DNA of 64,000 nucleotides from assembly GCA_016928435.1 (NCBI GenBank), contig JAFGKT010000064.1:2753-66752 (forward strand), given 5' to 3'. Both the position numbers and the translations under genes were made by a program. Each line of letters begins with the position of its first letter. The first letter of the stretch is position 1. Shown one piece after another: positions 4,742 through 64,000 of the stretch. Source of the stretch: Sedimentisphaerales bacterium. GTDB taxonomy: Bacteria; Planctomycetota; Phycisphaerae; Sedimentisphaerales; SM23-30. The notes under the pieces are model-generated. The model saw only the letters and a program-made list of their open reading frames with translations. It made no database searches and had not been told where the DNA came from.

Positions 4742-5374
4742 ATGCTTAAGATGATAGCGCGGATAATTGGGATATTGGAAGAGCTGGATACCGATAGCAA
4801 TGTGGCGTTGGTGGAGGTGGGGCAGTTGGGTTATGAGGTGATGGTGCCGGGCTATGCGGTGAGTGATTTGTCGGCGCGGGTGGGGCGCGAGGTAGTGCTG
4901 TATTGTTTGGAATATTATGAGGCGAGCGGCGGGATTGGGGGGAATTTGATACCGCGGATAATAGGGTTTCCGCAGGCGCAGGACAAACAGTTTTTTCAGC
5001 GGTTTATTAAGGTTAAGGGGATTGGGGTGCGTAAGGCGTTACGGGCGTTGTCACGACCGATCGGGGAGATCGCGGTCGAGATAGAAACCGGGGACACCAA
5101 GATGCTGGCTACGCTGCCTGAGATTGGCAAGCGCACGGCGGAGCAGATTGTGGCCGAGCTTAAGGGCAAGGTGGAGTTGTTCGCGTTGTCGGGCAAACAT
5201 TTGGTGGCGGAGCATAAGCCGTTGAGCGATGCGGCTCGGGAAGCGCTGGTAATTCTGCTTCAGTTAGGCGAGAAGGAAGTCGAAGCCGAAGCATTGATTC
5301 AGCAGGTGTTGGAGGATAAACCTGAGATAACTACGGACGCGTTGGTGCAGGCGGTGTATCGCTTAAAAGGTTAA
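4742..5374 (+). CDS. ruvA: Holliday junction branch migration complex subunit RuvA
   Basis: MIARIIG..., HhH region KVKGIGVRKALRAL / LPEIGKRTAEQIV, 3-domain size. Alternative ATG at 4751. Confidence 0.9.
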   Translation: MLKMIARIIGILEELDTDSNVALVEVGQLGYEVMVPGYAVSDLSARVGREVVLYCLEYYEASGGIGGNLIPRIIGFPQAQDKQFFQRFIKVKGIGVRKALRALSRPIGEIAVEIETGDTKMLATLPEIGKRTAEQIVAELKGKVELFALSGKHLVAEHKPLSDAAREALVILLQLGEKEVEAEALIQQVLEDKPEITTDALVQAVYRLKG

Positions 5375-9546: not shown

Positions 9547-10176
9547 AACGCTGTTTTTCCTTTCCAACAGTCACATACGTTTACTCTGCTTTACATTACC
9601 CCGGACGGCCTTAAACTGAAGGACATGAGCAATGAAGTAAGGTGTTTTGGATCAGGCATGTTCATGCTGTGGATTTTTTGCTCAAGTCGGTTCAGCCTTC
9701 TGCATTGGCTATCCAGGGAATATCATCGACTGTTTTTAACAGAATCTTGAGAAAAATAAGATTGGTTGAAAGTGGGGTTTCAGGGTTGATATGGTGGTTT
9801 CTGGGGTGGTTATAGGAACTTAATGTCCGGGCCTGAGGGTGTTTGGATAAGGGGGTTGCGACACCTCCTATATTCTCCATGTTGCCTGTATTGCCAGCGA
9901 TTGAGTCCGATAAGTGTTGGATTTGATGGGATTTGGATTTATTGGTTGGTTTTGTGGTTTTTGCGTTATGCTTATCGGTGGTTGGGACGGTGATGTAGGC
10001 GATTGCGTAGTAAGCTGGGGGCGTCTATAATTGATTGTGATATTTCTAAGGATTTTTACACAATTTGAGTGAAACGCGGGCGAAAAGCTCTGAATAGCGG
10101 CCGATTTTTCCGGTTAGATATCGGATTTCTGGGTCTATTTGGATGTTCCGCTGGTGCTATCAAGAGAGAAAGTTTT

Positions 10177-11187
10177 ATGAGCAAGCGTGACTACTATGAG
10201 GTTTTGGGGGTCAGCCGTGACGCCTCGCCGGAGGAGATCAAGAAGAGCTATAGGAAGTTGGCACGGAAGTATCATCCGGATGTAGCAGGGAAAGATCCCA
10301 AGGCGGCGGCTCAATTCAAGGAAGTTAAGGACGCGTATGATGTGTTGAAGGACAAGAAGTCGCGTGCTTCTTATGATCGGTTCGGCCATGCAGCGGAGCA
10401 TATGGGGGGTTGGTCCGGCGGCGGCGGAGAAGGAGGAGGCGGTTTTGGTGGTCAAGGTTTCGATTTTTCGGATATTTTTGGCGGCATGAGGGGTGGTCGC
10501 GGCGGTCGGCGGAGTAATGTCAAGATTAACCTGGGCGATTTGTTTGGCGGCATGGGCGGCGGTGGTGATGAAGATGAGGTTTTCGAGCGTTTGCGCGCGC
10601 AAGGCGGCGGGGCTCGAAGGCGTGGTGAAGATCTAGAACATAAAGTGCGCATTGGTTTTGAAGAAGCGATTCATGGTTCTACGCGTGATGTGGTTTTGAC
10701 CATGCCTCAAGCGGACGGCAGTCGTAAGCAAGAACATTTGAGTGTTAAGATTCCAGCGGGAGTGGATACCGGGAGCAAGATTCGGGTTCGGGGCAAGGGT
10801 CAGCCGGGTATGGGCGGAGACAATGGTGATTTGATCATCAAGGTTGTGGTAGGTGAGCATCCGTATTTTAGGCGGGACGGAGATCGGATAGATTTGGATG
10901 TTCCGGTGACTTTAGCGGAAGCGACGCTGGGCGCTAAGGTGGACGTTCCGACATTGACGGGGATGACGACGGTTACGATACCGCCTGGCAGCAGCGGCGG
11001 AAGCAAATTGCGGTTGAAGGGCAAAGGTGTGAAAGACAACAAGACGGGCAAGACGGGTGATATGTATTTGACGTTGAAGGTGGTATTACCACGAGATTTG
11101 GATGCTGAGTCGCGGAAGTTGGTGAAGCAATTTACGGATTTGAATCCTCAGCCGGACGTGCGTGATGGTTGGAAGCGTTCACAGTAA
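10177..11187 (+). CDS. DnaJ-class co-chaperone lacking the zinc finger (CbpA-like)
   Basis: J domain with HPD (RKYHPDVAG), Gly-rich linker and two C-terminal beta domains, but no CxxCxGxG repeats. ATG at 10177 gives [12 protein letters not shown]. The last four codons and the stop lie inside repeat copy A. Confidence 0.85.
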
Positions 11188-11422
11188 AGAGAACCACTAA
11201 TTGACACGAATAGTCACGAATATAGCTGCCATGGGCAGGGAGAAAGCACGAGGCAATAGTCTTGGGTGCAGTGTAGGCGAAAAGGTCAGGGATGTTTAAC
11301 ATCGCGAAAAGACGCGAAACATACGAAAGATAAGCACGAATTGATACGAATGGGCACGAATAAAGCAGCAGGTTGTGAGCGGCTATTGGTATTGATGTAG
11401 GTGCGAGAGCGTGAACGGTTAC
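11173..11422. mobile_element. MITE-like repeat, copy A (no intact target-site duplication seen)
   Basis: Aligns with 16975-17225 and 29075-29300. Left end AAGCGTTCACAG, right end GTGAACGGTTAC (inverted CGTTCAC/GTGAACG). Subterminal CACGAAT/CACTAAT heptamers. Confidence 0.6.
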
Positions 11423-15385: not shown

Positions 15386-15415
15386 TTTACCAGTTTTATG
15401 CTGGATGCGATATAC

Positions 15416-15452
15416 GGGCTGCTGTTTCGTTTGGAACGGCAGCCTTTTTTTT
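15416..15452 (+). terminator. Rho-independent terminator of rplM-rpsI
   Basis: Stem GGCTGC (15417-15422) / GCAGCC (15439-15444) followed by T8 (15445-15452). Confidence 0.75.
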
Positions 15453-15552
15453 GGGTGGATTTTGGCTGAGCGGTTGGTGGTTGACAGTTTTTGTGGTAGG
15501 ATACGATTGGCTTTTGGCTCAGGGAAAAGTCTAGTGATAGGGATTGTCGCGC

Positions 15553-16965
15553 ATGCATACGCTATTTTTATGTTGGCGATACTTACGGAAGCGTCGGATA
15601 GTTTGGTTTCCGATTGTTGCGGTGATGCTTTGTGTGGCGTTATTGATAGTGGTTACGAGTTTGTTTGACGGTTTTGTGGCGAAGTATTTGGAGTCTCAAC
15701 AGCGATTTTTTGGGGAGATCACTCTGACGCCGCCACGTGCGATGACGGGTTATGTGGACTTGGCGGACCGTTTGAGTGCATTGCCGGAGGTAGCGGTAGC
15801 CACACCGGTGGCGCGTACGGGTGGGTTGTTGTATTTAGGTCGAGGTGATGTTCGTGGGGTACAGCTTTTAGGGATTGATTTGGCGGCGCGCTGTCAGGAT
15901 GAAGAATTCGCGGCGGGTTTGGTCTTGCAGAAAGACGCATCGGAGCCGAGTTTTGCGCTGCCTGAGGCGGTGCGGGAGCGTGCGCGATCTTGGCTGGAAC
16001 GCAAGTTGCGGCGTGAAGTTGCGGATGATGACTTACCTACGGGTGCGATCTTGGGCATTGGGGTTTTGGTTGAGCCGGACGATTTGACGGATGCGTATGA
16101 TGTTGAGGAGATTCGTGATTTGCTGGCGGATCGTTCGACGGGTATGAGTATAACCGCTGGTCGGATAGTCGATGGTGCAGACGGTCGCAGCGCGGTTCGC
16201 CGGACGGGTGTATGTTGGCCGGTGGATGTGGTGGAAACAGGATTAGATGAAGCTGACACAAGTCATGTATATTTACCCTTTGACTACGTGGCGGATTTAA
16301 TAGGGACAAGTGAATGGGGAAAGCCATCCTGTATTGCTCAGATACATATAACCTTAGCGGAGGGTTATTCTCGGGGTGAGGTAATACAAAAGGTTCGCGC
16401 GGCATGGCAGATTTTTGCGCGAGAAAACTTGGGTTGGGATACAATTTGGGCGAATATGGTGGTGATAGAATCACAGGATGAGAGCCGTTGGGCGAAATTG
16501 TTAACGTATGAAATCCAGAAGCAATTAAGAGTTATGCAAATGATTTTGGGTTTGATTTGTTTAGTTGTTATTGTGTTGGTGTTTGTGGTGCTGTTTATGA
16601 TAGTTTTGCAGCGGCGGCGTGATATAGGGATTGTGCGCAGTGTTGGTTCATCGCGTTGGGGAGTGGCGATGGTTTTTATCGGTTATGGCGGCGCGATAGG
16701 TTTGGTTGGCGCGGTTTTGGGATTGATCTTAGGAGCATGGGCAACTAAGAATATTACGATGTTAGAAGGTGTATTGACACGCATTTTGGGTTTCAAGGTT
16801 TGGCGCAGCGGTGTTTATATGCTCCGTGAGATACCGAATGAAATATCCTGGGGTGCGGTATGGTGGATTATGTTGGCGGGTGTTTTGGCGGCGGTGGTTG
16901 GCGCGTTACTGCCGGCGGTGAAAGCGGCACGGATGCAGCCGGCTTCGGCTTTGCGTTACGAATAA
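15553..16965 (+). CDS. ABC transporter permease, FtsX/MacB (LolC/E-like) family
   Basis: N-terminal LCWRYLRKRR TM1, large periplasmic loop, C-terminal 3-TM FtsX domain ending AARMQPASALRYE. ATG at 15553 (track TTG 15544). Confidence 0.85.
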   Translation: MHTLFLCWRYLRKRRIVWFPIVAVMLCVALLIVVTSLFDGFVAKYLESQQRFFGEITLTPPRAMTGYVDLADRLSALPEVAVATPVARTGGLLYLGRGDVRGVQLLGIDLAARCQDEEFAAGLVLQKDASEPSFALPEAVRERARSWLERKLRREVADDDLPTGAILGIGVLVEPDDLTDAYDVEEIRDLLADRSTGMSITAGRIVDGADGRSAVRRTGVCWPVDVVETGLDEADTSHVYLPFDYVADLIGTSEWGKPSCIAQIHITLAEGYSRGEVIQKVRAAWQIFARENLGWDTIWANMVVIESQDESRWAKLLTYEIQKQLRVMQMILGLICLVVIVLVFVVLFMIVLQRRRDIGIVRSVGSSRWGVAMVFIGYGGAIGLVGAVLGLILGAWATKNITMLEGVLTRILGFKVWRSGVYMLREIPNEISWGAVWWIMLAGVLAAVVGALLPAVKAARMQPASALRYE

Positions 16966-16974
16966 TGTGTTATG

Positions 16975-17225
16975 GTAACCGTTCACTGTAAAATGAACCA
17001 CGAATAGACACTACTATTCACTAATTAAGATTTAGCTGCCAGGGGCGAAAGCGAAGGAATAGTTGGTTAGTTGGGAGTATAATTGGAAAAGAAGGTCAGG
17101 AAATTATAAGTTGCGGATGACACGGATGATTGCGGATTCTTTTGTTTGGGATCGTAAATTTACGAATGGACACGAATAAATAGATTGAGTTGGTTGATTT
17201 GTGGGTGCGATCGCATGAACGGTTA
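16975..17225. mobile_element. MITE-like repeat, copy B, flanked by 9-bp direct repeat TGTGTTATG
   Basis: TSD at 16966-16974 and 17226-17234. Termini TAACCGTTCA / TGAACGGTTA are inverted (10/10). Lies between the stop of permease 1 and the ATG of permease 2. Confidence 0.75.
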
Positions 17226-17231
17226 TGTGTT

Positions 17232-18587
17232 ATGTATAAATTATTATTAATCTGGCGATACTTTGTAGCTAAGCGAGTGGCGCTGTTGGCGGTAGCGGCA
17301 GTGGCGCTGGTGGTGATGTTGGTGCTGGTTGTGTTGAGCGTCATGTCGGGGTTGTTGGAGAATACGCGCAGCCGAAATCATCGTTGGACGGGTGATGTGG
17401 TGCTATCGCGGGCGTCGCTGGTTGGTTTTCCTTTTTATGATGAGTTCATTGCTGAGTTGGAGGGGCATGCGGAGGTTGCTAGGGCAACGCCTGTAGTTAA
17501 GACGTATGGATTGATAGAACAGCGTAACACAACGATCGAGTTGTATGGGTTGCGCATGGATGAGTTTTGCAGGGTTACCGGTTTTCGGGAAACTCTGCAT
17601 AGATTCAAGGATCGGCCGTCCGTGAGCTTTATGCTTGAATCGGAATTGTATGTGACGTTAAGCGAAGAAGCTCGAGGGCGGGGTTGCATTGTGGGTCATT
17701 ATATGCTGGATGATGATATAGGAGATTCAGAACGTGAACTGATGGCGCATTATCCGTTGGGTTGGAACATGACGGTTTTTGGTTTAAGCAGTCAAGGAGT
17801 GCTGTTAGGTTCGGATATGGGTTCGAGTCAGCGGTTTTGGTATGTTGATGATTCGGACAGTGGTTTGCCTCGCGTGGACGGGGTGGCGGTGTATGTGGAC
17901 TTTGATGAATTGCAGCAGTTATGTTTTATGAATGGTGTGGATGGTGAGCCGGCGCGGGCGAATGAGATTCGGGTGTGTTTGGCGGATGGGGTGGACGCGG
18001 TTGAAGGGGAAGCAGTGGTGCAAAGGGTGTGGGGAGATTTTGTGGTGGGCAAGCGCGAATTGGGGCAGGCGCGTTTGTTGGAAGATGTAAGAGTGCAAAG
18101 TTGGCAAGAGTTTCGGCGCAGTTACATAGCGCCAGCGGAAAAAGAGCGGAATTTGATGGTGGTGGTGTTTTGTATGATCGGGGTGGTGGCGGTGTTTGTG
18201 GTGTTCGCGATATTTTACATGATTGTGATGGAAAAGGTGAAAGATTTGGGGGTGATCAAAAGCGTGGGTGCTTCGGGTTGGAGTTTGGGACAGGTGTTTT
18301 TAGGCTATGGAATATTGGTTGGGTTAGTTGGAGCGTTGATTGGTTCGAGCTTTGGAGTGTTGATTGTACGGAACAGCAATGAAATCGAAGCGGTTTTGCA
18401 TCGGTGGTTTGGGTTTCAATTATGGAACCCAGCAGTGTACGCGATTGATAAGATACCGGATGTAGTATATTACGGTCAGGCATTGGTGATAGGATTAGCG
18501 GCGATTGGGGCGTCGGTTTTGGGAGCGATAATACCGGCTTGGCGAGCAGCGCGTTTGGAAGTGGTGGAGTCGCTACGAGTAGAATAA
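17232..18587 (+). CDS. ABC transporter permease, FtsX/MacB (LolC/E-like) family
   Basis: MYKLLLIWRYFVAKR TM1, periplasmic loop, FtsX C-terminal domain ending AARLEVVESLRVE. ATG at 17232; the track start 17190 lies inside the repeat. Confidence 0.85.
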   Translation: MYKLLLIWRYFVAKRVALLAVAAVALVVMLVLVVLSVMSGLLENTRSRNHRWTGDVVLSRASLVGFPFYDEFIAELEGHAEVARATPVVKTYGLIEQRNTTIELYGLRMDEFCRVTGFRETLHRFKDRPSVSFMLESELYVTLSEEARGRGCIVGHYMLDDDIGDSERELMAHYPLGWNMTVFGLSSQGVLLGSDMGSSQRFWYVDDSDSGLPRVDGVAVYVDFDELQQLCFMNGVDGEPARANEIRVCLADGVDAVEGEAVVQRVWGDFVVGKRELGQARLLEDVRVQSWQEFRRSYIAPAEKERNLMVVVFCMIGVVAVFVVFAIFYMIVMEKVKDLGVIKSVGASGWSLGQVFLGYGILVGLVGALIGSSFGVLIVRNSNEIEAVLHRWFGFQLWNPAVYAIDKIPDVVYYGQALVIGLAAIGASVLGAIIPAWRAARLEVVESLRVE

Positions 18588-18753
18588 GGTGCGAACCGCA
18601 CTGGTAGATTGACCGACGAGACTCGGTTTGGTGATGACGCTTCCGCTGGGCGCTGCCATATTGAGTATCTAGGTTTTGGTACGCGGTTCTATACAAGGTG
18701 CGAACCGCCCTGATAATGAGCATGAAAAAACCTTAAATTGACGGCGAGGTTGT

Positions 18754-19452
18754 ATGTCAGACAAAAGTGATATAATTATCAAAGCGCAAGGCATTCACAA
18801 AAGCTATACGTTGGACAAACGTAAGCAGGTGGTTTTGCATGGTGTGGATTTGGAAGTTGGGCGGGGTGAGTTTTTGGCGGTAATGGGCAGCAGCGGCAGT
18901 GGTAAGAGTACGCTTTTGCACATATTGGGGTTGCTGGATAAGCCGGACCAGGGGCGGGTGGATTTTGAAGATCGATCGGTTTTTGATTTGAGCGGTTTTC
19001 GGCAGGATCGGATACGCAATAGGGAGATTGGTTTTGTCTTTCAGTTTTATCATTTGCTGCCTGAGTTGAATGTGTTGGAGAATGTGTTGTTGCCGATGAT
19101 GGTTCGGTCGTCGTTGCTATCGTGGTTTGGCACGAGACGACAGGCGAAGCGGCGGGCTCGGGAATTGGTTGAGGAGGTAGGTTTGGGGTCGCAGACAAAG
19201 CAGCGTCCGGCGACTTTGAGCGGGGGTGAGCGTCAGCGGGTGGCGTTGGCTCGGGCGCTGATGGCGGACCCGAAATTATTATTAGCGGATGAGCCGACAG
19301 GAAATCTTGACTCTGCGTCAGGAAAAGCTATTCTAGAGTTATTAGGCCGACGGAACAAGGCCGGCCAGACGATAGTCATGGTGACGCACGACCATTCGGT
19401 TGCGGCTTTGGCTGAGCGAAAACTGGTTCTCCAGGATGGGGTTTTGAGCTAA
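18754..19452 (+). CDS. ABC transporter ATP-binding protein (LolD/MacB-type)
   Basis: Walker A GSSGSGKST, signature LSGGERQR, Walker B LLLADEPTGNLD. Confidence 0.92.
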   Translation: MSDKSDIIIKAQGIHKSYTLDKRKQVVLHGVDLEVGRGEFLAVMGSSGSGKSTLLHILGLLDKPDQGRVDFEDRSVFDLSGFRQDRIRNREIGFVFQFYHLLPELNVLENVLLPMMVRSSLLSWFGTRRQAKRRARELVEEVGLGSQTKQRPATLSGGERQRVALARALMADPKLLLADEPTGNLDSASGKAILELLGRRNKAGQTIVMVTHDHSVAALAERKLVLQDGVLS

Positions 19453-20385: not shown

Positions 20386-20487
20386 AGCATAAGTAAGCGT
20401 TCACAGACAGTCAGCATGGGCTGATGATCCCATCCTATGGGACTATGTTCGGCCATAGAATTTGAGTCGCAGGGATCGGATTAGGAT

Positions 20488-28998: not shown

Positions 28999-29074
28999 AA
29001 CAGCGTTCCTCAGAAGCGTTTATAAATCGCCTCATAGGATGCCGGAAAACAGGGCGGTTGTCAAGGGTTTAGAT

Positions 29075-29300
29075 AAGCGTTCACAGCAAAGAGAACCACT
29101 AATTGACACTAATATTCACTAATATAGCTGCCAGGGGCATGATAACGGCAAAAGTGGTTAGTCGGTGAGCATAAGGAAACAGATAGCTCAGAGAATAATT
29201 AACCACAAAAGAACGCGAAAGATAAACACAAATAGCTAAGAATAGGCACGAATAAAGGCATTATTGATTCATTAGCGGTTGCTAGAGCGTGAACGGTACT
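29075..29300. mobile_element. MITE-like repeat, copy C, flanked by 9-bp direct repeat GGTTTAGAT
   Basis: TSD at 29066-29074 and 29301-29309. Ends AAGCGTTCAC / GTGAACGGTACT. Three CACTAAT heptamers near the left end. Confidence 0.75.
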
Positions 29301-29561
29301 GGTTTAGATTTCTTTAAGGGGACAGGGGTTTGCTGGTCGGCATAATCGATACATTCGTTACATTACTCAAGGTCGGGCAGGTGAGTTCAGGGAAAATGGT
29401 TGAGATTTTTGAAGTCGCGTTGCCGGGAGGGTATTTGAATATTATGTTTAAGGCAGTTAGTGAGGCATTTGAGTTGATTGAGTCATGGTGGGGTGACTTT
29501 GGTTTAGGGCAGGGAGGCCTAGATTTGTCCTATTATTTTGGACAGCGAAGGATCCAGGGTT

Positions 29562-34687: not shown

Positions 34688-34740
34688 AGGGAACCGCGTG
34701 GGTAACTTTGAACATCTTGTTCAAAATTACCCACCCTACC
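34688..34740. repeat. Palindromic repeat element, copy 1 (37-nt hairpin core)
   Basis: GGGAACCGCGTGGGTAACTTTGAACA-TCT-TGTTCAAAATTACCCACCCTACC. Arms pair 16/17. Second copy at 35852-35902. Confidence 0.7.
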
Positions 34741-34888
34741 AAAGGCTAAGTGGTTTGGTTTTGAGGATTGACGCCGGCGGGGGTAAACTATATAAAGTCT
34801 TCTATGTGGCTCATTTAGATGCGTTTGCTGGTGCTGTTTGCTGGAGCGACATAATTGGAATAGGATTCGTTTTGTAATTGGAGGTGTG

Positions 34889-35761
34889 ATGTTTATTGAT
34901 ATTCACGCTCATTCTTATCGGGATCCGGCCCCTCGTTCGGCGGGCCAGACAGTGACGATCACGCCTGATGTTTTGCTGGGACTGTACGATAAGTATGAGA
35001 TCGATCGGGGGGTGTTGTTGCCCTTGGTGAATCCGGAGGTTTATCTGCCGCAATCGACAGAGGAGATTTTGGCGATAGTGGCTGAATATGGAGAGCGGCT
35101 GATACCATTTTGTAATGTTGATCCGCGGGCGATTACGAATTCAGCGGATGCGCCGTTGGGTGATGTTTTGCGTTATTATAAGGATAGGGGCTGCAAGGGG
35201 ATCGGCGAGGTGATGCCGAACTTGCCTTTTACCGATCCGTTGGTTCAGAATTTGTTTAAGCATGTGGAAGAGGTGGGGATGCCTTTGATCTTTGATATTT
35301 CTGATCGGATCGGGGGCGATTATGGATTGTATGATGATGTGGGTCTGCCTCAATTAGAGCGGTGTTTGCAGCGTTTTGGCAAATTGAAGATATTGGGGCA
35401 TGGGCCTGCTTTTTGGTCGGAGATTGGGCAATTGGAGACGCCCACGGACCGAGCGGGCTATCCGAAGTATCCGATCAAGGAAGAAGGGGTAGTGCCGAAG
35501 TTGCTGCGGCGGTACGAAAATATGTACGGCGATCTCTCGGCTGGGAGCGGCTTTGGCGCTTTGGCACGCGACCGGAAGTTCGCGGTGGAGTTTCTCAATG
35601 AATTTCAGGATAAGTTGTTGTTTGGGACGGATCTTTGCGTGGCTGAGGGCAAAGTGCCGTTAGCGGGATTCCTGAAGGAATTGAAGGCTGAGGGGAAACT
35701 GAGCGCTGAGGCGTTTGAAAAGATCGCTTGGCGTAACGCTGCGGAGATGTTGGATTTATAG
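34889..35761 (+). CDS. Amidohydrolase-family metal-dependent hydrolase (TIM barrel)
   Basis: N-terminal MFIDIHAHSY (HxH metal motif). ATG at 34889 follows GGAGGTGTG. Confidence 0.75.
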   Translation: MFIDIHAHSYRDPAPRSAGQTVTITPDVLLGLYDKYEIDRGVLLPLVNPEVYLPQSTEEILAIVAEYGERLIPFCNVDPRAITNSADAPLGDVLRYYKDRGCKGIGEVMPNLPFTDPLVQNLFKHVEEVGMPLIFDISDRIGGDYGLYDDVGLPQLERCLQRFGKLKILGHGPAFWSEIGQLETPTDRAGYPKYPIKEEGVVPKLLRRYENMYGDLSAGSGFGALARDRKFAVEFLNEFQDKLLFGTDLCVAEGKVPLAGFLKELKAEGKLSAEAFEKIAWRNAAEMLDL

Positions 35762-35851
35762 GGTGCGAATCGCACAGATAGATTTATTGACGATCGACGG
35801 TTGGGCTATGGTGTTTCTGCTGGTTGTTGCAACAGTTGGGGCGATTGATCA

Positions 35852-35902
35852 GGGAACCGCGTGGGTAACATTGAACAAGATGTTCAAAATTACACACCCT
35901 AC
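35852..35902. repeat. Palindromic repeat element, copy 2
   Basis: GGGAACCGCGTGGGTAACATTGAACA-AGA-TGTTCAAAATTACACACCCTACC. Same orientation as copy 1, but the 3-nt loop is complemented (TCT versus AGA). Confidence 0.7.
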
Positions 35903-36314
35903 CGGTTTGATTGGGGGGTGGGAATAAGTTTTTTTGGCCCGGTTTTATATTATCGGACGTTGGGGGTGGTGTAATCGTTACAGAGTGACTTGGACTGGTT
36001 TTAGGGGGCGTGCGGATGGGATAAGATGCGGGGTTAATTTGCATCTCGGGGGTTTATATTTTAGATTACAGATGAGAGATATACCTACTTAGGTATGGTT
36101 TCTTTGGCATGCCCTTACGGAGGCATTTCGACGCTGGGCAGAATCTACGTCGAATGTTGCTGATCCCCTAGAAGAAATACAGTAGAAGCGGCGCGCGCTT
36201 AGCGCCGTCGGCGGACGGTCTCTATCGCATGGATTGATGGTTGGTTTTGGATCCCGACTATTGACTTAGTGCATATAGAGATGGGATTCGTCATTAGAAA
36301 TACATAGCGCCCTA

Positions 36315-43804: not shown

Positions 43805-45526
<1,722 letters not shown>

Positions 45527-46036: not shown

Positions 46037-47647
46037 ATGGCCAAGCAAATGATGTTTGATGATGCCGCCCGAAAAGAAATTCAGGACGGCCTGATGCGGC
46101 TGGCTTCAGCGGTGAAGGTTACGATGGGGCCGACGGGTCGTAACGTGATCCTGCAGAAAAGTTTCGGTTCGCCCCGTGTCACCAAAGATGGTGTTAGTGT
46201 TTCCAAAGAAATCGAACTGCCCGAGCCTTTTGCCAACATGGGCGCGAAAATGGTGAATCAAGTAGCCAGCAAGACCAGTGATGTGGCCGGTGACGGCACA
46301 ACCACGGCTACGGTTCTTGCCGAAGCGATCTACACCGAAGGGCTCAAATATGTTGCCGCGGGTGTAAATCCCATGTCGCTGCAGCGCGGTATTAACAAAG
46401 CTGTCGCGGTGGCGGTAGAGTCAATCGCCAAGCAGAGCAAAAAGGTTAAAGGCAGCGACGATATCGCCAAGGTCGGTGCTATAAGCGCCAATAACGATCC
46501 GCAGATCGGCAAGCTTTTGGCTGAAGCCATGGACAAAGTCGGCAAGCAGGGCGTTATCGAAGTCGAAGAAGGTAAAGGTATCGAGACTGAACTGGAAGTT
46601 GTCGAAGGTATGCAGTTCGACAAAGGTTTTCTGTCGCCTTACTTTATAACCAAGGCCAGCAGTATGGAAGCCGTTCTGGAAGATTGCTATATTCTCATTC
46701 ACGAGAAGAAGATCAGCAATCTGCGGGAGTTGGTTCCGTTGCTGGAAAAAATCGCCGGCTCCGGCAAGCCGTTGTTGATGATTGCTGAGGATGTTGAAGG
46801 CGAAGCCCTGGCGGCTTTGGTTATCAACAAGCTGCGCGGCGTGCTGCACGTTTGTGCGGTTAAAGCTCCCGGCTTTGGTGATCGTCGCAAAGCCATGCTG
46901 GGTGATATCGCGGCGTTAACCGGCGGGCAAATGATCAGCGAAGATCTGGGCTTGAAACTGGAAAACATCGAAATGTCCCAATTGGGCCAAGCTCGTCGTG
47001 TTGTTATCACCAAAGAGAACACCACGATTGTCGATGGTGCCGGTGCCAAGAAAGATATCAAAGCCCGCATCAATCAAATCGAAAGTCAAATTGAAAAAAC
47101 CACCAGCGATTATGATCGTGAGAAACTACAAGAGCGTCTCGCCAAGTTAACCGGCGGCGTTGCTGTTGTAAGAGCCGGTGCTCCAACCGAAACCGCGATG
47201 AAGGAACGCAAGGATCTGTTGGAAGACGCTCTGCATGCAACCCGGGCCGCGACCGAAGAAGGTGTAGTACCTGGCGGCGGCGTGGCGTTGCTGCGGGCGA
47301 TTAAGACGGTTCAGCAGGCGCAAAAGGATATCGTCAACGACGAGAAATTCGGTTTCGAGATCATCGCCAAAGTACTAAAGGCCCCGGCGCGTCAGATTGT
47401 CGAGAATAGTGGTGCCGACGCGGCCATGGTGATTTCAGAGCTGATGGAGAAAACCGGCTCGGCTGGGTATAATGCCGCCAAGGGTGAGTTTGTTGACATG
47501 CTAGAAGCTGGTATTATCGACCCTGCCAAGGTTACCCGCGCTGCTTTGCAGAACGCCGGCAGCGTCGCTGGGCTTATGTTAACAACCAAGGTTCTGATTA
47601 CCGATCTCAAAGATGATGAAGAACCTGTGCAGGGCGCGATTAGCTAA
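46037..47647 (+). CDS. groL: Chaperonin GroEL (copy 2, acidic tail, no GGM repeats)
   Basis: [34 protein letters not shown]. Ends [14 protein letters not shown]. Confidence 0.97.
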
Positions 47648-47942
47648 CATCTAAGTGGAATGTCCGGATGATATTTTCCGGGTTCTGTTTAGATACTGAT
47701 CGTTGCTTGTTGATGAAGTAATTTGACAGCCGTGGTCACGATGTTGGCTCTGTATGATTGCTCGCAAAATGCTATATGATCTAGAATAGCGTTAGCGGGA
47801 CTAAATCAAACAGGCAAGACATCGTGGCCGACGGTGGTTTTTGTTTCGAGAACAATTCTCGATATGCAAACTGAGGCTATGCGACGGCGCAATTTGCCGT
47901 TTTTGGGTCATTGGCCCATAGCTGTTGTTTTGGATGGGCTTT

Positions 47943-49097
47943 ATGGCAGCAACCAAACGCGACTACTATGAAGTGTTGGGCGTTAAACGCGATTCCAGCC
48001 CGGAAGACATCAAACGCGCCTATCGGCGTTTGGCGATGAAATATCATCCGGATCGCAACCCAGACCAGCCCGAATGTGAGCAGAAGTTCAAAGAATGCGC
48101 TGAAGCCTACGAAGTACTCAGCGACTCGCAAAAACGACAGCAGTATGATCGTTTCGGCCATGAAGGACTGCGCGGCAGCGGAATGCACGACTTCTCGCAT
48201 ATGCGCTCCGATGATATCTTCAGCATGTTCGATGATATCCTGGGTGGTGTTTTTGGCGGTGGTCGTCGGCGCGGTGGTCGATCGGGCAACCGTGCGGCTC
48301 GCGGTTATGATATCGAAACCCAAGTCACCATCAGCATGCAAGAAGTACTCAGCGGCGTAGAAAAGCTGCTGGAGTTCAAGCGACGTGATCTTTGCCCGCA
48401 ATGCAAAGGCAGCGGCGCCGAGCCTGGTCATGATCGTGAACCTTGTGCCCAGTGTGGCGGTCAAGGCCAAGTAGCCCAATCAGGTATGGGCGGACTGTTT
48501 CGTATGGTTACCACTTGTCCGCGTTGTAAAGGCGCAGGCAGTGTAGTAACTCATCCGTGCAAAGCATGTCATGGTCAAGGAATGGTCGAGAAAGAGCGTA
48601 AGCTGACTCTCAAGATTCCCGCCGGCATTAGTGACGGACAAGCAGTTCGGGTTACCGGTGAAGGCGAACCCGGCCAGCACGGCGGTCCATCGGGTGATTT
48701 GTATTGCTATGTTAGAGTGAAGGGGCACGATTTTTTGCATCGCGAAGGCGATGACTTGGTAGTGCGTTTGCCGATAAGTTTCAGCCAAGCGGCATTAGGC
48801 GCTACCGTTGAAGTACCTTCTTTGTCCGGTCGGCGCGAAATAGAAATACATCCGGGTACGCAGCATGGCGCGGTGATCGAAGTCAAAGGCCAAGGTTTAC
48901 CCAATATTCGTAGCGGCCGGCGCGGTTCGCTGCTGGTGCAGGTTTTGATCGAGATTCCTAAGAAGCTCAACAAAGAACAGAAGAAGCTGTTGCGGCAATT
49001 TGCCGAGACCGAAGATAAAACTGTATTGCCGGAAAGCAAAGGGTTTTTTGATAAACTCAAAGATTACTTTGCCGGCGAAAGTCACAATTCCAACTAA
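47943..49097 (+). CDS. dnaJ: Molecular chaperone DnaJ (type I, with zinc finger)
   Basis: J domain HPD (KYHPDRNP), G-rich linker, four CxxCxGxG repeats ([32 protein letters not shown]). Confidence 0.96.
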
Positions 49098-57050: not shown

Positions 57051-59225
57051 ATGACTTCCTCCAATCAACCGTCTATTGACCCAACGACTGAAATACGTTT
57101 CTTGCGCGGCGTCGGTCCTCGCCGGGCGGAGCTGTTCGCCCAACTGGGGGTTCATACCGTAGCGGATTTGCTGGAATACTATCCGCGCGATTATCAATTC
57201 ATGCCGCCGCTTTGCCTTATCTCCGAGTTAGCGCCGGATTTGAACGTTGCTGTTGCCGGGCGTATCGATTCTTTGAATTTCAATCGTCGCAGCCGACCGC
57301 CTCGCTTCGAGGTGCGGTTGGAGGACAATACCGGCAGTTGCCGACTAGTGTGGTTTCACGGCGCGTATCTCAAGGACAAATTCATCCCCGGCGATACCAT
57401 TGCCGCTTGGGGTAAGGTCAGCCGTTATCACGAAACCCTGCAAATAATCAATCCCAAGTGGACTCGCGTCGAAGATGCCGACGACTTACTTAGCCGTCAG
57501 GATACCGCTCGCGCGGTTTACCCTGCCACTGCGGATTTATCATCCAGCCAAATCGGCGGTGTGATTCGCAATTCAATTGACGCGATAACCGCCGGCGTGC
57601 CCGAACGCTACCCGGACGCATTCATCAAAGCCAAAAAGTTCCCCTCTCGCGCCGATGCCTTACGTTGGATCCATTGCCCGAGCGACGAAGATCAAATTAA
57701 TGCCGCCCGTCGTCGATTGGTGTATGATGAGCTTTTTCTGATGGAACTGGGCATCGCTCTACGCCGTGAAGCGGTGCGTATCATACAGCCTGCCTATCCT
57801 GTCGCGGTCGATGAGCGTTTGGACAAGCGAATTCGTCGGCTTTTCCCTTTCTTACTCACCGACGCGCAAAACCGGGTAATCGACGAAATCGCTGCGGACA
57901 TGGCTCGTTCTGAACCGATGAACCGTTTACTTCAGGGCGATGTCGGCTCGGGCAAGACTGTGGTAGCTTTGTACGCCACGCTTGCCGCCATCGGCAATCA
58001 ACGCCAAGTCGCCATAATGACCCCTACCGAAATCCTCGCTGAACAGCACTTTCTCAGCGTCGAACGTTATTTGCGTAATAGCCGGGTCCGTCGGGTGCTG
58101 CTGACCGGAGGATTGACGGGCAAAAAACGCGCCGAACTGATGAGTCAAATCGACCAAGGCGAAATCGATCTTGTAGTCGGCACCCAGGCTTTGCTGCAAA
58201 AAGACGTCACGTTCAACAATCTTGGTTTGGTGGTGATCGATGAACAGCACAAGTTCGGCGTACGTCAGCGCCAACGTATTCGCGGCAAAGACGTAGCGCC
58301 CCATTATCTGGTTATGACCGCTACGCCGATCCCTCGCACCTTAGCTATGACAGTATTCGGCGATTTGGAGGTTTCGGTGATTGACCAATTACCGCCGGGC
58401 CGACGCAGTATCGAAACCCGCTACGTTGCCCCTGAGCAAAAGCAAAAGGCCTTTGATTTTATCCGCCAAAAGGTCAAGCAAGGCCAGCAGGTCTATTTTG
58501 TCTATCCCCGTGTCCAGGATGCCGCCGCTGATGCCGAAGCTGATCTCGATGCCGACGCTGAGCTGTTTGACGCTTACGATCTGCCCCCGGCCGTCGATAA
58601 ACAAACTTACGCCAAAACCCTCAAGGCCGCGATTGTCGAACACAAAGTTTTGCAGAACGAAGTTTTTCCCGAGTTTACCGTAGGTCTAATCCATGGCCAA
58701 ATGGACCATACCGACAAGCAACACGCCATGGATGATTTCCGCAATCACAAAATCGATATTTTGGTCGCCACCGTGGTAATCGAAGTCGGCGTCGATGTCC
58801 CTAACGCTACCATCATGGTGATCGAACACGCGGAGTATTTTGGCTTGGCCCAGTTGCACCAATTGCGTGGACGTATCGGACGGGGTGATAAACAATCTTA
58901 TTGCCTGCTATTCGGCGAGCCCCGCAACGAAATCGCCCAACAGCGTCTCGATACCATGGTACAAACCTGCGATGGTTTTCGCATTGCCGAGCAGGACTTA
59001 CGTCTCCGCGGCCCGGGGCAATTCTTCGGTGCCGCCCAGCACGGTCTGCCGGAACTCAAAATCGCTGATCTGCTCAGAGATACCGACCTGCTCCGCATGG
59101 CCCGCCGCGACGCTTTCGACTTAGCCCGCCAAGACCCCCATCTCCGTCAGGCGCATAATCAGGTGTTGCGTAAGGATCTGCTCAAGAGATTTGGCCCAGG
59201 ACTGCCCCTGGTGGATGTCGGCTGA
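57051..59225 (+). CDS. recG: ATP-dependent DNA helicase RecG
   Basis: Wedge-domain N-terminus. Helicase motifs [38 protein letters not shown]. Confidence 0.96.
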
Positions 59226-59951: not shown

Positions 59952-62279
59952 ATGTCTGTTGCCCCTTCGCAGTTGCTTAATCGTCAGATACCGGAAGAAC
60001 TGGCGGTAATGTTGCGTCGCCGCGGCGTAGAGCCCAGCCAGGCCTGGCTCTGCGTGGAAACCGATTTGAACCTCGCAGGCCAATTCGAGCGAGTCTTTCT
60101 CTTGGTTTTTGAACGGCGGCTTATTGTGGCCGGCATGGCTTGGGGCGATCAATCACGACTTATTCGTATCGATCTGCCTCGCGATAACATCACTCAGGTG
60201 CGTACACGCGGCGGGGTGGGCGGCGGTTTTCTCGAAGCTGTCGTTAGTGGTATTGCCGTTGACTTTATGACCTTTAGCAACGGCTTAGCGGACACTTTCG
60301 CCAAAGTCGCTCGTAAACTAAACGACTGGTGCGAAAACAAACCTGTCAGCGTCGGTATCGAAGACGATTACAATCCCCGCAAGTGCCCAGTTTGCGGCAT
60401 GACCCTGCAGTTTCCCGGCGATGTCTGCCGACGCTGTGCCAAACAAGGAGCAGTACTTTGGCGCGTGATAAAGCTAATGAAGCCCTATTCTGCCAAAGCC
60501 ACCTTGATGATGCTCTTTGTGCTGTTCGGCATCGCTTTGAGCTTAGTGCCCCCCAAGCTCACTCAATATCTTATTGATAAAGTACTCACTCCCGTATTGA
60601 GCGATGATGGCGCCGCCCGCTCCGACGCCATCAAATGGCTTATTATGCTGGTCGCTGCTCTGCTTGGCGTATATGTGCTGGGTATGGTCGTAACAATGAT
60701 TCGCGGCTTGCTCTCAAGTTTCGTGGGTACCCAGATATCCTTCGATATGCGCGCTCGTGTTTTCGATCACATCACCAAGCTCGGCATCTCCTATCACGAC
60801 CGTTACAGCCCGGGCCAACTTATGACCCGAATCTCCGGTGACACCGCCGCCCTACGCGGATTCGTCGATCAACTTACCTCAGGCTTCTTGGCTCAACTCA
60901 TTACCGTAGTCGCCGTCGGTGTCATTATGTTCTCTCTAAGCTGGAAACTCACTCTTTACACCCTGGCGCCGGCACCTTTGGTTATTGCCTCGGCGGTCTT
61001 TTTCTACGCTCGCGTACGCCCGCGCTACAGTCGTATTTGGGATGCGCAAAGCAAATTGTCCGGCGTACTCAGCACCATTCTTTCCGGTATTCGTGTAGTC
61101 AAAGCGTTCGGCCAAGAACTCCACGAACGCAATCGCTTCACCGGTTCCAGCGAGCATCTGCAAAATAGCGAACGTAATGTCGAATATGCTGTGTGGAAAT
61201 TTACCCCCGCCATGGGACTGCTCTTCCAATTGGGCAGTATCATCGTATGGTTTGTCGGCGGAAAAGACGTACTCGACAGCCAACTCACTCTCGGTGAGCT
61301 TATCGCCTTTTTGGGTTACTTGGGAATGTTCTACGCTCCGTTGGGCACGCTCACCCAACTAACCACTTGGCTCACCAGTTTCCTCACCGCCGCTCAACGT
61401 ACATTCGAAATCCTCGATACCCGCCCCGATGTCGATAGCTCCGAAAACGCTAAAAGTGTCGAAGCCCAAGGTGCCATCACCTTCAAAAACGTTACCTTTG
61501 GCTATAATCGTCACGAGCCTATTCTCCGCGACGTCTCTTTCAAAATCAAGCCTGGTGAACACATCGGGATTGTCGGCAAAAGCGGCTGCGGCAAAACCAC
61601 GCTCGTCAATCTCATCAGTCGTTTCTACGACACCGACCGCGGCCAAGTGTTGATCGACGGTGAAGAAATCCGCAACCTCAACGTCGATGATCTCCGCCGC
61701 AGCATCGGTGTGGTCCTACAAGAGCCGTTCTTATTCCGAGGCACTATTTCCGCCAACATCACCTACGGTCAACACAATGCCACCCCCGAGCAAATCATTA
61801 CCTCCGCCAAAGCCGCTAATGCCCACGACTTTATCGCTCGTCTGCCCCTGGGCTACGACACCTATATCGGCGAACGTGGGGCGGGCCTATCCGGCGGCGA
61901 ACGCCAGCGAATCTCCATTGCCCGGGCTCTATTGTTTGACCCCAAAGTCCTAATCCTTGACGAAGCAACCAGTAATGTCGATACCGAAAGCGAAAAACTT
62001 ATTCAAGACGCCCTTGTGCGAATAACTTCCGGCCGCACCACCATCGCCATCGCCCACAGGCTAAGTACCCTCAAAAACTGCGATCGAATCTTCGTTATGG
62101 ACCGCGGCTCCATCATCGAACACGGTTCCCATGAAGAGCTTATGGAGCAAAAAGGTTTGTATTATCGCCTCGTCAAAATCCAAACCGAACTGTCCAGCGA
62201 ACCCAGCATCGACGTACTCACCGCCGAGGACGAGGAAGAAAAAGAAAAAAACGCTAAAAAACGGAAAACAAAATCGTAA
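59952..62279 (+). CDS. ABC transporter ATP-binding/permease (exporter type) with ~170-aa N-terminal extension containing a zinc ribbon
   Basis: Extension with CPVCG ... CRRC, then a 6-TM exporter domain. NBD with Walker A GKSGCGKTT, signature LSGGERQR, Walker B LILDEATS. Confidence 0.9.
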   Translation: MSVAPSQLLNRQIPEELAVMLRRRGVEPSQAWLCVETDLNLAGQFERVFLLVFERRLIVAGMAWGDQSRLIRIDLPRDNITQVRTRGGVGGGFLEAVVSGIAVDFMTFSNGLADTFAKVARKLNDWCENKPVSVGIEDDYNPRKCPVCGMTLQFPGDVCRRCAKQGAVLWRVIKLMKPYSAKATLMMLFVLFGIALSLVPPKLTQYLIDKVLTPVLSDDGAARSDAIKWLIMLVAALLGVYVLGMVVTMIRGLLSSFVGTQISFDMRARVFDHITKLGISYHDRYSPGQLMTRISGDTAALRGFVDQLTSGFLAQLITVVAVGVIMFSLSWKLTLYTLAPAPLVIASAVFFYARVRPRYSRIWDAQSKLSGVLSTILSGIRVVKAFGQELHERNRFTGSSEHLQNSERNVEYAVWKFTPAMGLLFQLGSIIVWFVGGKDVLDSQLTLGELIAFLGYLGMFYAPLGTLTQLTTWLTSFLTAAQRTFEILDTRPDVDSSENAKSVEAQGAITFKNVTFGYNRHEPILRDVSFKIKPGEHIGIVGKSGCGKTTLVNLISRFYDTDRGQVLIDGEEIRNLNVDDLRRSIGVVLQEPFLFRGTISANITYGQHNATPEQIITSAKAANAHDFIARLPLGYDTYIGERGAGLSGGERQRISIARALLFDPKVLILDEATSNVDTESEKLIQDALVRITSGRTTIAIAHRLSTLKNCDRIFVMDRGSIIEHGSHEELMEQKGLYYRLVKIQTELSSEPSIDVLTAEDEEEKEKNAKKRKTKS

Positions 62280-62385: not shown

Positions 62386-62937
62386 ATGACTCACACTATC
62401 CAAGAGCCGGAGACGTTACCCATTGACCCCACGCAAATCCGCTTTCTAACTCCGGATATGTGTCAGATACACTTAGGCGCCCACGACGCCCTCCACGTCA
62501 CCGTCAAAAACGAACGCATCTACGGCGGCGTCTATGCTACGCGTATTTTTCCGGTTGGTCATCCTGGCAAGTTTATCTCCTTGATTTACATTGGTCCCGA
62601 CGGCAAAGAAACCGAGGTCGGTATTATCCGCGAACTGGAGGAATTCCCCGAAAAGGCTGTGCAATTGATTCAAGAATCCCTCCAACGCCGTTACCTGGTC
62701 CGCAACATCAGCAAGATTAACAAGGTCGGCCTAAAGTACGGCTTTATCGCCTTCGAAGTCGTAACCGATAAAGGCCCCTCCGAGTTTTTCATGTATTGGC
62801 AGCATGACAAAGCCCACGATTACGGAGTCAATGGCAAGGTGCTGCTCGATGTGGACGACAATCGCTATATGATTGCCGATATCGACCAACTGAGTGCCCG
62901 CGAAAAAGCTGATTTCCAACGTTTCATCTACTGGTGA
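62386..62937 (+). CDS. DUF1854-like protein (ABC-transporter-associated)
   Basis: About 180 aa directly downstream of the ABC exporter, ending ADFQRFIYW. The family assignment is from memory of DUF1854 sequences and is not verified. Confidence 0.55.
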   Translation: MTHTIQEPETLPIDPTQIRFLTPDMCQIHLGAHDALHVTVKNERIYGGVYATRIFPVGHPGKFISLIYIGPDGKETEVGIIRELEEFPEKAVQLIQESLQRRYLVRNISKINKVGLKYGFIAFEVVTDKGPSEFFMYWQHDKAHDYGVNGKVLLDVDDNRYMIADIDQLSAREKADFQRFIYW

Positions 62938-63578
62938 TTGTCGCGGATCAACTCCACAAACCGGCAATAGCATAAAAGTGTCCGTCTAAACTCTTTTCCG
63001 CGTTTTTCCAGCAATAAAAGCTGCTGCGACCCGCTGGAACCTATCGGCGCCACCATCTTACCACCTTCAGCCAGTTGTTGCTCCCAGCGTTTGGGTATGC
63101 TTTCCGCCGCCGCCGTCGCTATAATCCGATCGAAAACCATCTCAACCGGCCAACCCCGACTGCCGTCGCCAATCAAATACTCAACATTATCGATCCCCAA
63201 AGCCTCTAAGTTTCTCCGCCCCTGCTTGGCCAAACTCGCTATGCGCTCAATCGTATAAACTTTCCCCGCCAACCCAGCCAGAATCGCTGTTTGATAGCCG
63301 CAGCCGGTCCCAATTTCCAGTACCTTATGGTCGCTCCTCACGTCCAGCTTCTCGCTCATCAACGCCACGATATACGGTTGAGAAATAGTCTGGCCCTCTT
63401 CCAACAACACCGGATTGTCATCGTAGGCGTAACTACGCCGATCCTGTGGAATGAACAACTCTCGCGGCAGACGCCCCATCACCTCCAACACTCTCTCATC
63501 GGCTATCCCCCGACCCCGCAATTGCCTATCCACCATCAAGCGCCGTTGCGTTGCCCATTGCTCCGCTTGGTTCGACAT
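62928..63578 (-). CDS. pcm: Protein-L-isoaspartate O-methyltransferase
   Basis: TISQPYIVALM and VLEIGTGCGYQTAILA motifs. ATG at 63578 gives about 217 aa (the track start 63740 adds an unlikely extension). The 3' end overlaps the convergent DUF1854 gene by 10 nt. Confidence 0.92.
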   Translation of the reverse strand: MSNQAEQWATQRRLMVDRQLRGRGIADERVLEVMGRLPRELFIPQDRRSYAYDDNPVLLEEGQTISQPYIVALMSEKLDVRSDHKVLEIGTGCGYQTAILAGLAGKVYTIERIASLAKQGRRNLEALGIDNVEYLIGDGSRGWPVEMVFDRIIATAAAESIPKRWEQQLAEGGKMVAPIGSSGSQQLLLLEKRGKEFRRTLLCYCRFVELIRDNHQ

Positions 63579-63675
63579 TGCGCCCGTCTTCCTGCTTTGA
63601 TCCCCCGGTTTTTCGCAATTGCTTTCCTCCCCCAGCGACATCCCAAATTCGTCAACGGCGCGATTATTCCCCTGG

Positions 63676-64000
63676 TTACCGTCCGTCATCTTCCAAAGTC
63701 TCGCTCGTGTTCTCGGCATTCTCATCCAAGGCATCATCATTCGGTTCCGGCGCCGCTATCGAAAGAGGCTTCATGATGCCGTTAAGACCATGCCCGCTCC
63801 GCGGCTTTGGCAACTGACCACCTTCGACCTGAAAATCCGCCAACCGATTGGCGCCCGCTTGAGCCCCGAACTTCAATGTCCCAATATCAATAATCCCGCT
63901 ACCGTTATTATGTTCTGCCTGCGCAGTGCTGGGCGATGCTGACTGTTCGGTTTCCACCGGCCCGCAACTGCCACCGCCATCCCCTGTTAACGACTTATAC
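63676..64000 (-). CDS. Hypothetical protein, C-terminal part (ORF open to the right window edge)
   Basis: The reading frame of track ORF 63676..63957 continues without a stop to base 64000. It uses G-ending codons, like pcm. No family recognised. Confidence 0.35.
   Translation of the reverse strand, partial: YKSLTGDGGGSCGPVETEQSASPSTAQAEHNNGSGIIDIGTLKFGAQAGANRLADFQVEGGQLPKPRSGHGLNGIMKPLSIAAPEPNDDALDENAENTSETLEDDGR

Follow-up and report, generated by a model that had tools for sequence, protein, structure and literature searches.

A very probable MITE insertion between the stop and start codons of two permease genes in a LolCDE-like operon of a Sedimentisphaerales bacterium

The stretch analysed here is a 64-kb window (contig JAFGKT010000064.1; mean GC content 51%) from a Sedimentisphaerales bacterium. 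It contains a three-gene operon in which two permease genes are followed by an ATPase gene. The stop codon of permease 1 and the start codon of permease 2 are separated by 266 nt, and most of this spacer is an element, here called copy B, that is very probably a non-autonomous DNA transposon of the MITE (miniature inverted-repeat transposable element) kind. An earlier note on this DNA had assigned the two permeases to a Lol/MacB-like ABC (ATP-binding cassette) system, and domain searches agree: both open reading frames (ORFs) carry a C-terminal FtsX domain, the lolC/E models are their best match, and a LolD-like ATPase follows. NCBIfam scores (153 and 136 bits for lolCE, 243 for LolD) stay below the equivalog cutoffs of 362 and 308. 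The name LolCDE-like is justified by the architecture of the operon, with the substrate assignment putative. A public record (P0001) holds a 451-residue protein that is 100% identical to permease 2 and was called from the same ATG. The C-terminus of permease 1 (…LRYE*) is conserved in the relatives L002, L003, L004 and L030, and so is the N-terminus of permease 2 (MYKLLLIWRYF) among relatives. It follows that the insertion stands precisely between the stop and start codons native to the two genes, leaving both proteins unaltered.

Directly after the TAA of permease 1 (16963-16965) stands TGTGTTATG, and the same nine bases return beyond the far end of copy B, where the final three are the ATG of permease 2. 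The earlier note had described this arrangement, and its positions for both 9-mers, the length of the spacer and the 251 bp of the element were all reproduced from the sequence. The 9-mer occurs twice in the window, both strands searched. By our own calculation, identical nine bases outside both ends of an element would arise by chance with a probability of 4^-9, or about 4e-6 per register. The claim of a perfect 9-bp duplication needs one amendment. The repeat is perfect and sits at the ends of the element, but an A precedes both copies, so that the perfect direct repeat is 10 bp long (ATGTGTTATG, 16965-16974 and 17225-17234) and the duplication measures either 9 or 10 bp. Despite the 10 bp at copy B, the duplication length of the family is probably 9. 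Removal of copy B and one repeat yields GAA TAA TGTGTT ATG TAT AAA with its 6-nt spacer, and the reconstructed empty junction reads …CGAATAATGTGTTATGTATAAATT…. The reconstructed target region has 29% GC against 51% for the window, and the element entered a closely packed junction of two lolC/E-like genes, its target being the 6 nt of spacer together with the ATG. Because the duplication begins right after the stop codon and includes the start codon, neither protein is changed.

Copy B is one member of a repeat family, of which the window holds three full copies (A, B and C) plus a solo end (Table 1). The copies measure 252, 251 and 226 bp respectively, are AT-enriched (40-47% GC) relative to the window and can be aligned over their full length, being conserved at the ends and variable in the middle. 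Copy B begins with GTAACCGTTCAC and ends with CATGAACGGTTA, forming a perfect 10-bp inverted repeat (TAACCGTTCA / TGAACGGTTA, 10/10). Copy A matches at 9/10 positions, the ends of copy C (AAGCGTTCAC / GTGAACGGTACT) are imperfect as inverted repeats, and the terminal inverted repeats of the family span 10-12 bp. Beside its left end each copy has three heptamers of the CACNAAT type, spaced by 10 nt, and 130-162 nt downstream a second heptamer block in the same orientation; thus only the outer 10-12 nt of the window copies are inverted. Matches to the heptamer pattern number 10, against 0.8 expected by chance. The coding content of copy B is one ORF of 38 codons' worth of residues (38 aa), wholly inside the element and non-conserved. 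Exact 9-bp repeats also flank copy C, and their sequence, GGTTTAGAT, differs from that at copy B. Since the two copies have different duplicated sequences, transposition is indicated and not site-specific integration or recombination. Two conclusions of the earlier note, that the insert is a MITE and that it arrived by transposition with target duplication, gain from this comparison: the family has inverted-repeat ends, no coding capacity and flanking duplications at two copies, and copy C carries its 9-bp repeat independently and at the same element boundaries.

Table 1. Features of the LolCDE-like operon, of copy B and of the other members of the repeat family (window coordinates)
Feature	Coordinates	Strand	Remarks
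Permease 1, LolC/E-like, FtsX domain	15554..16965	+	ORF opens with TTG 15544, first ATG 15554; Pfam FtsX 4e-15; TIGR02212 lolCE 7.6e-45, below equivalog cutoff
Left target-site duplication TGTGTTATG	16966..16974	+	10 bp counting A16965; ATG 16972-16974 is the duplicated former start codon
Putative decoy ORF, 11 codons, MVTVHCKMNHE*	16972..17007	+	Opened by the duplicated ATG, runs into copy B; read from the sequence, translation predicted
MITE copy B	16975..17225	.	251 bp, 40% GC, non-coding; nhmmer against three-copy profile E = 5e-59; aligned with copies A and C
Copy B left terminal inverted repeat TAACCGTTCA	16976..16985	+	Inside the 12-nt end GTAACCGTTCAC; 10 nt, 100% complementary
Copy B left subterminal block	16999..17025	+	CACGAAT 16999, CACTACT 17009, CACTAAT 17019; 10-nt phase; block shared with copies A and C and the L021 elements
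Copy B right internal heptamer block	17161..17177	+	TACGAAT, CACGAAT; direct relative to left block
Copy B right terminal inverted repeat TGAACGGTTA	17216..17225	-	Pairs with left repeat
Right target-site duplication TGTGTTATG	17226..17234	+	ATG 17232-17234 is the permease 2 start codon
Permease 2, LolC/E-like, FtsX domain	17232..18587	+	451 aa, intact; Pfam FtsX 1e-10; TIGR02212 1.1e-39; homologues align over 100% of query
LolD-like ABC ATPase, third operon gene	18754..19452	+	Pfam ABC_tran 7.5e-36; TIGR02211 LolD 1.8e-72, below cutoff
MITE copy A	11171..11422	.	No flanking duplication; holds stop codon 11185-11187 of DnaJ/CbpA-like ORF 10069-11187
MITE copy C with duplication	29066..29309	.	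Element 29075-29300; GGTTTAGAT at 29066-29074 and 29301-29309
Solo end GTAAGCGTTCACAG	20393..20406	+	14 nt, just after aminotransferase gene; probable remnant of another copy

The same junction was compared in relatives. With copy B and one repeat removed, the window reads TAA, TGTGTT (6 nt) and ATGTATAAA. The closest relative, L002 (permease 2 with 75% amino-acid identity), has TAA, 11 nt and ATGTATAAG, and L004 / L005 (58% identity) have TAA, 9 nt and ATG. Longer junctions are found in L003 (62 nt; 61% identity), L030 / L031 (43 nt; 55% identity) and L032 / L033, from another Sedimentisphaerales genome of the same sample (about 150 nt; 57% identity). The earlier note had held that the same spacer with the same flanking 9-mers in all relatives would speak against a transposition. 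None of the orthologous loci examined has the element, and its prediction that excision of copy B with one repeat would restore a tight 6-nt junction gives a junction resembling those of the closest relative and of another relative. From this sequence comparison, copy B appears to have inserted into a formerly tight junction like that of L002. The converse history, in which the spacer is ancestral and was deleted in relatives, with the flanking 9-mers coincidental or left by a slippage duplication, draws on the spread of junction lengths among Sedimentisphaerales (9 to about 150 nt), by which spacers come and go. Yet the spacer is one of several dispersed family members with inverted-repeat ends, its flanking repeat coincides exactly with the boundaries of the element, and copy C has a 9-bp repeat of its own. 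The 43-, 62- and ~150-nt spacers are also unrelated in sequence to copy B, and nhmmer gave no match to the element in L002-L005 or L029-L033. We consider an ancestral spacer very improbable. The occurrence of 43-150-nt spacers at this junction in the order does imply that a long spacer is tolerated there, and an insertion need not be strongly deleterious. In L032/L033 the spacer (2316-2465; GCA_016934515.1, sample SRR13394437) is AT-rich and the gene caller has set the permease 2 start too far downstream; it may represent a different insertion at the same site.

Repeats are classic places for mis-assembly, and the sequence comes from a metagenome-assembled genome, so a repeat could have been collapsed or mis-joined into the junction. 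Several observations make such an artefact highly improbable. The Logan assembly of run SRR13394437 matches the window exactly over 5,083 nt, copy B included; the 12-kb contig concerned also takes in copy A, judging by coordinates. A mis-join would not yield a perfect target duplication with both ORFs intact. Copy B is also clearly diverged from its siblings: in the first 65 nt it has 69% identity to copy A, while A and C share 92%.

To class the family, we used the following criteria for MITEs: a length of about 50-600 bp, no transposase or conserved coding sequence, inverted-repeat ends, a target duplication of constant length, dispersed copies and an empty site in relatives. What was found can be summarised as (i) lengths of 226-252 bp, with the 38-aa ORF as the only one within copy B; (ii) inverted-repeat ends, together with AT-richness; (iii) a duplication of 9-10 bp at copy B, exactly 9 bp at copy C and none at copy A, the constancy of length being read from two informative copies; (iv) three full copies and a solo end, counted within 64 kb; (v) empty sites at the readable orthologous lolC/E junctions (L002, L003, L004/L005, L030/L031 and L032/L033). 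A Pfam scan of 30 large ORFs of the window returned products that are housekeeping or of no assigned function; ORFs 57051-59225, 59952-62279 and 62928-63740, those of a chaperone region (43829-45526, 46037-47647 and 47925-49097) and several short ORFs lay outside that scan. Duplications of 8-10 bp are made by IS1, IS4, the IS903 group of IS5, IS256 and ISAs1, as is generally known from ISfinder.

Five points weigh against reading copy B as a transposed MITE with the consequences proposed below. No autonomous partner with matching ends was found, and the 30 large ORFs scanned include no transposase. At copy A a flanking duplication is missing (none of at least 7 bp in any register). The right heptamer block is direct and not inverted, a feature not typical of insertion-sequence derivatives formed by simple deletion. 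The closest relative available for the empty-site comparison, L002, is only 75% identical at the protein level and is not the same species. Finally, both assemblies that contain the insertion derive from the same reads. Taking these together with the evidence above, we hold it very likely that copy B is a MITE.

We propose the following course of events. The element would be mobilised by a transposase, probably a DDE enzyme, whose gene lies elsewhere and which would recognise the 10-12-bp terminal inverted repeats and probably also the phased CACNAAT heptamers. The enzyme would cut an AT-rich target with a stagger of 9 (or 10) bp and join the element in, and repair of the stagger would duplicate the target. 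Read-through from the promoter of the operon most likely carries transcription across the resulting untranslated spacer of 266 nt. That the insertion persists is probably owed to two things: neither coding sequence was disrupted, and the lineage tolerates long spacers at this place.

For translation the consequences may be larger. That permease 2 has no obvious ribosome-binding site, as the earlier note had remarked, is borne out: a Shine-Dalgarno motif is present neither upstream of its ATG nor in the reconstructed pre-insertion junction. Across a crude gene set of the window such a motif precedes 23 of 42 genes, compared with 11% of random 15-mers. Given that the motif was already missing before the insertion, the ancestral 6-nt junction probably used termination-reinitiation, and that coupling would now be broken. 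Permease 2 would need de novo initiation at a start without a Shine-Dalgarno motif, while the duplicated ATG at 16972 opens a putative 11-codon decoy ORF ending at 17007 that may capture reinitiating ribosomes. The proposal that expression of permease 2 depends on copy B is plausible from the sequence and has been weakened, since no promoter-like or terminator-like site was found in the element and the relatives' spacers vary in length, which indicates that tight coupling is not obligatory in this group.

A different role for copy B would be that of a domesticated cis-regulatory or RNA module controlling the permease 2/lolD part of the operon, whose heptamers bind a host regulator or whose transcript is structured; this is compatible with an origin as a transposon. 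The two blocks of up to three heptamers per copy, set at a helical 10-nt phase, would suit a regulator. Two observations point the same way: upstream of a gene, at one locus seen in four metagenome contigs, a lone 50-nt end module is conserved, and the elements are placed at junctions of same-strand genes in both genomes that have them (the window and L021, described below). Set against this, repeated subterminal sites are equally expected as binding sites of a transposase, the middle of the element is poorly conserved and no promoter-like or terminator-like site was found within copy B at the scan threshold. A perfect TATAAT at 17079-17084 was considered as a family promoter and rejected, as it lacks a -35 partner and is conserved in neither copy A nor copy C. 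Rfam gave no match at the gathering score over the whole window and none at E <= 1 over 16900-17300, and the folding energy of copy B RNA is unremarkable (z = -1.26). We regard a domesticated module as unlikely. The terminal inverted repeats are predicted to pair in the mRNA as an 11-bp stem, with a probability of 0.93, 0.65 or 0.25, falling as more flank is folded. It is conceivable, and in our judgement distinctly unlikely, that copy B is not neutral: in this model some 230 nt would be looped out by the stem, so that the permease 1 stop codon would come to within about 15 nt of the permease 2 ATG and termination-reinitiation coupling would be kept, or alternatively the heptamers would recruit a DNA-binding protein and place permease 2 and lolD under new control. 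Were either non-neutral version true, the family would be a self-accommodating one, able to colonise junctions of essential operons.

The end module of the family was also searched for more widely. The scan of species-representative genomes (pattern CGTTCACNGNAAANNGAACCAC, 18 specified bases, 2 x 596 Gb) gave 19 single matches across unrelated phyla, about 17 being expected by chance on our own estimate, and only one of them, L021, is related. This contig (JAGGWF010000055.1, Planctomycetota metagenome-assembled genome AUK119) carries two MITE-like elements at 2350-2573 and 4780-4967, distant relations of those in the window. They share with the window family an end module of about 50 nt, CGTTCAC…AAA…GAACCACGAAT…ACACTAAT. 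The AUK119 elements are 190-220 bp long and lie between same-strand SPFH/Band-7 genes, and the window elements likewise lie at same-strand gene junctions. In AUK119 both ends are inverted copies of the module, with inverted repeats of 36-43 nt, whereas inversion in the window copies is limited to 10-12 nt and their second heptamer block has direct orientation. The flanking repeats of the AUK119 elements are degenerate, that of the second being about 11 nt, ATCCT(C)TTTTAG. A metagenome scan with a 20-base pattern returned four contigs (L025-L028; JGI, e.g. Ga0190284_1000096) that represent one orthologous locus with shared flanks. In each, an ATG is preceded at a distance of about 50 nt by a conserved solo end module of 50 nt, CAGCGTTCACGCAAAAAAGAACCACGAATAAACACTGATAGACACTAATG, which may be a remnant or may have been co-opted. 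No transposase-bearing element was found in the metagenome scan, all relatives being non-autonomous, and a collection of viral contigs gave no match to the end module. Judged by sequence likeness, the end module appears to be common to a broader group of non-autonomous Planctomycetota elements, of which the window family would be a structural variant.

Several further observations concern the copies and the operon. The DnaJ/CbpA-like ORF 10069-11187 combines a J domain with a complete DnaJ_C domain, and its last ~5 codons come from copy A. Within copy B, adjoining the right inverted repeat, lies the only occurrence in the window of the octamer GCGATCGC (17207-17214), a palindrome that is highly iterated in cyanobacteria; its presence here is probably coincidental. 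Upstream of the operon, just after rpsI (15386-15450), a hairpin followed by a T-run (GGCTGCTGTTTCGTTTGGAACGGCAGCCTTTTTTTT) looks by eye like an intrinsic terminator, and TTGACA, also read by eye, stands at about 15483 between this hairpin and the lol-like operon. The apparent terminator suggests that the operon has a promoter of its own at 15450-15550. Downstream, the spacer between permease 2 and lolD (18586-18753) is 166 nt long, against 11 nt in L002 and 9 nt in L004. It holds a 21-nt direct repeat of 90% identity (AAGGTGCGAACCGC…; 18586-18606 and 18695-18715), and over its first 66 nt it shares 73% identity with what immediately follows the amidohydrolase stop at 35761 (35758-35823). This looks like a second small repeat family, a short hairpin GGTGCGAAYCGCAC… that starts right after stop codons, in which case both junctions of the lol-like operon would have been expanded by repeats.

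Elsewhere in the window, a third small repeat family consists of two 53-nt copies, 91% identical (34688-34740 and 35851-35903), that bracket the amidohydrolase gene (34838-35761) and each hold a 37-nt near-palindrome, GTGGGTAACTTTGAACATCTTGTTCAAAATTACCCAC. ORFs 43829-45526 and 46037-47647 are paralogous, with repeats 2,205 nt apart at 72-73% identity. Near the 3' end of the former a 9-nt tandem repeat (45440-45520) codes for Gly-Gly-Met, and Gly-Gly-Met tandem repeats are typical of GroEL C-termini. Both ORFs are putatively GroEL-like, and 47925-49097 is a putative second DnaJ-type J-domain gene, assignments made from repeats only.

The insertion is of use in several ways. It offers a clear transposition footprint in the poorly studied Sedimentisphaerales (Planctomycetota, class Phycisphaerae), and the 9-bp duplication together with the GTAACCGTTCAC ends provides a guide in the search for the missing transposase. 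It is also a natural experiment on translational coupling: in a LolCDE-like operon that is probably essential, 260 nt have come between the two sides of a tight junction lacking a Shine-Dalgarno motif, and both ORFs are intact. For annotation, MITE copies explain anomalously long intergenic spacers in this genome and, at copy A, an altered gene 3' end.

The family can be set beside three known systems. MITEAba12 of Acinetobacter makes 9-bp target duplications, prefers AT-rich targets and keeps the duplication at only some copies (PMC6382973). In all three respects, a 9-bp duplication, an AT-rich target and a duplication missing at some copies, the window family is alike. It differs in being 226-252 bp long with GTAACCGTTCAC ends, CACNAAT heptamers and no parent found, while MITEAba12 has 113 bp, 16-bp inverted repeats of the GGCTTTGTTG type and the parent ISAba12 (PMC6382973). 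Correia elements of Neisseria, by the account in the review PMC10969869, are small, have inverted repeats and are co-transcribed with their neighbours, and they can carry protein-binding and RNA-processing sites that alter operon expression. They resemble copy B as small inverted-repeat elements beside genes; a promoter, an integration host factor (IHF) binding site or an RNase site in copy B would be hypothetical. Correia elements duplicate a TA dinucleotide, as opposed to 9 bp here. Chunjie, a MITE from Geobacter uraniireducens Rf4, is by the same review a non-coding element of about 235 bp with terminal inverted repeats and flanking direct repeats that has inserted in an operon (PMC10969869, citing Chen et al. 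2008, Genetics 179:2291). Compared by description only, it shares with copy B its size, inverted repeats, direct repeats and insertion in an operon (PMC10969869). It belongs to another phylum. Of two operons for phosphate uptake its copy disrupts one, according to that review (PMC10969869); copy B, by contrast, occupies precisely a stop/start junction and has duplicated the start codon. A literature string search for the end sequences of the element returned unrelated primer sequences only, and no description was found in the literature of this MITE family, its end sequences or any Sedimentisphaerales MITE family. The current understanding of MITEs is unchanged, as 9-bp-duplicating and operon-inserted bacterial MITEs are already known; the family of the window is previously undescribed but of a well-known kind.

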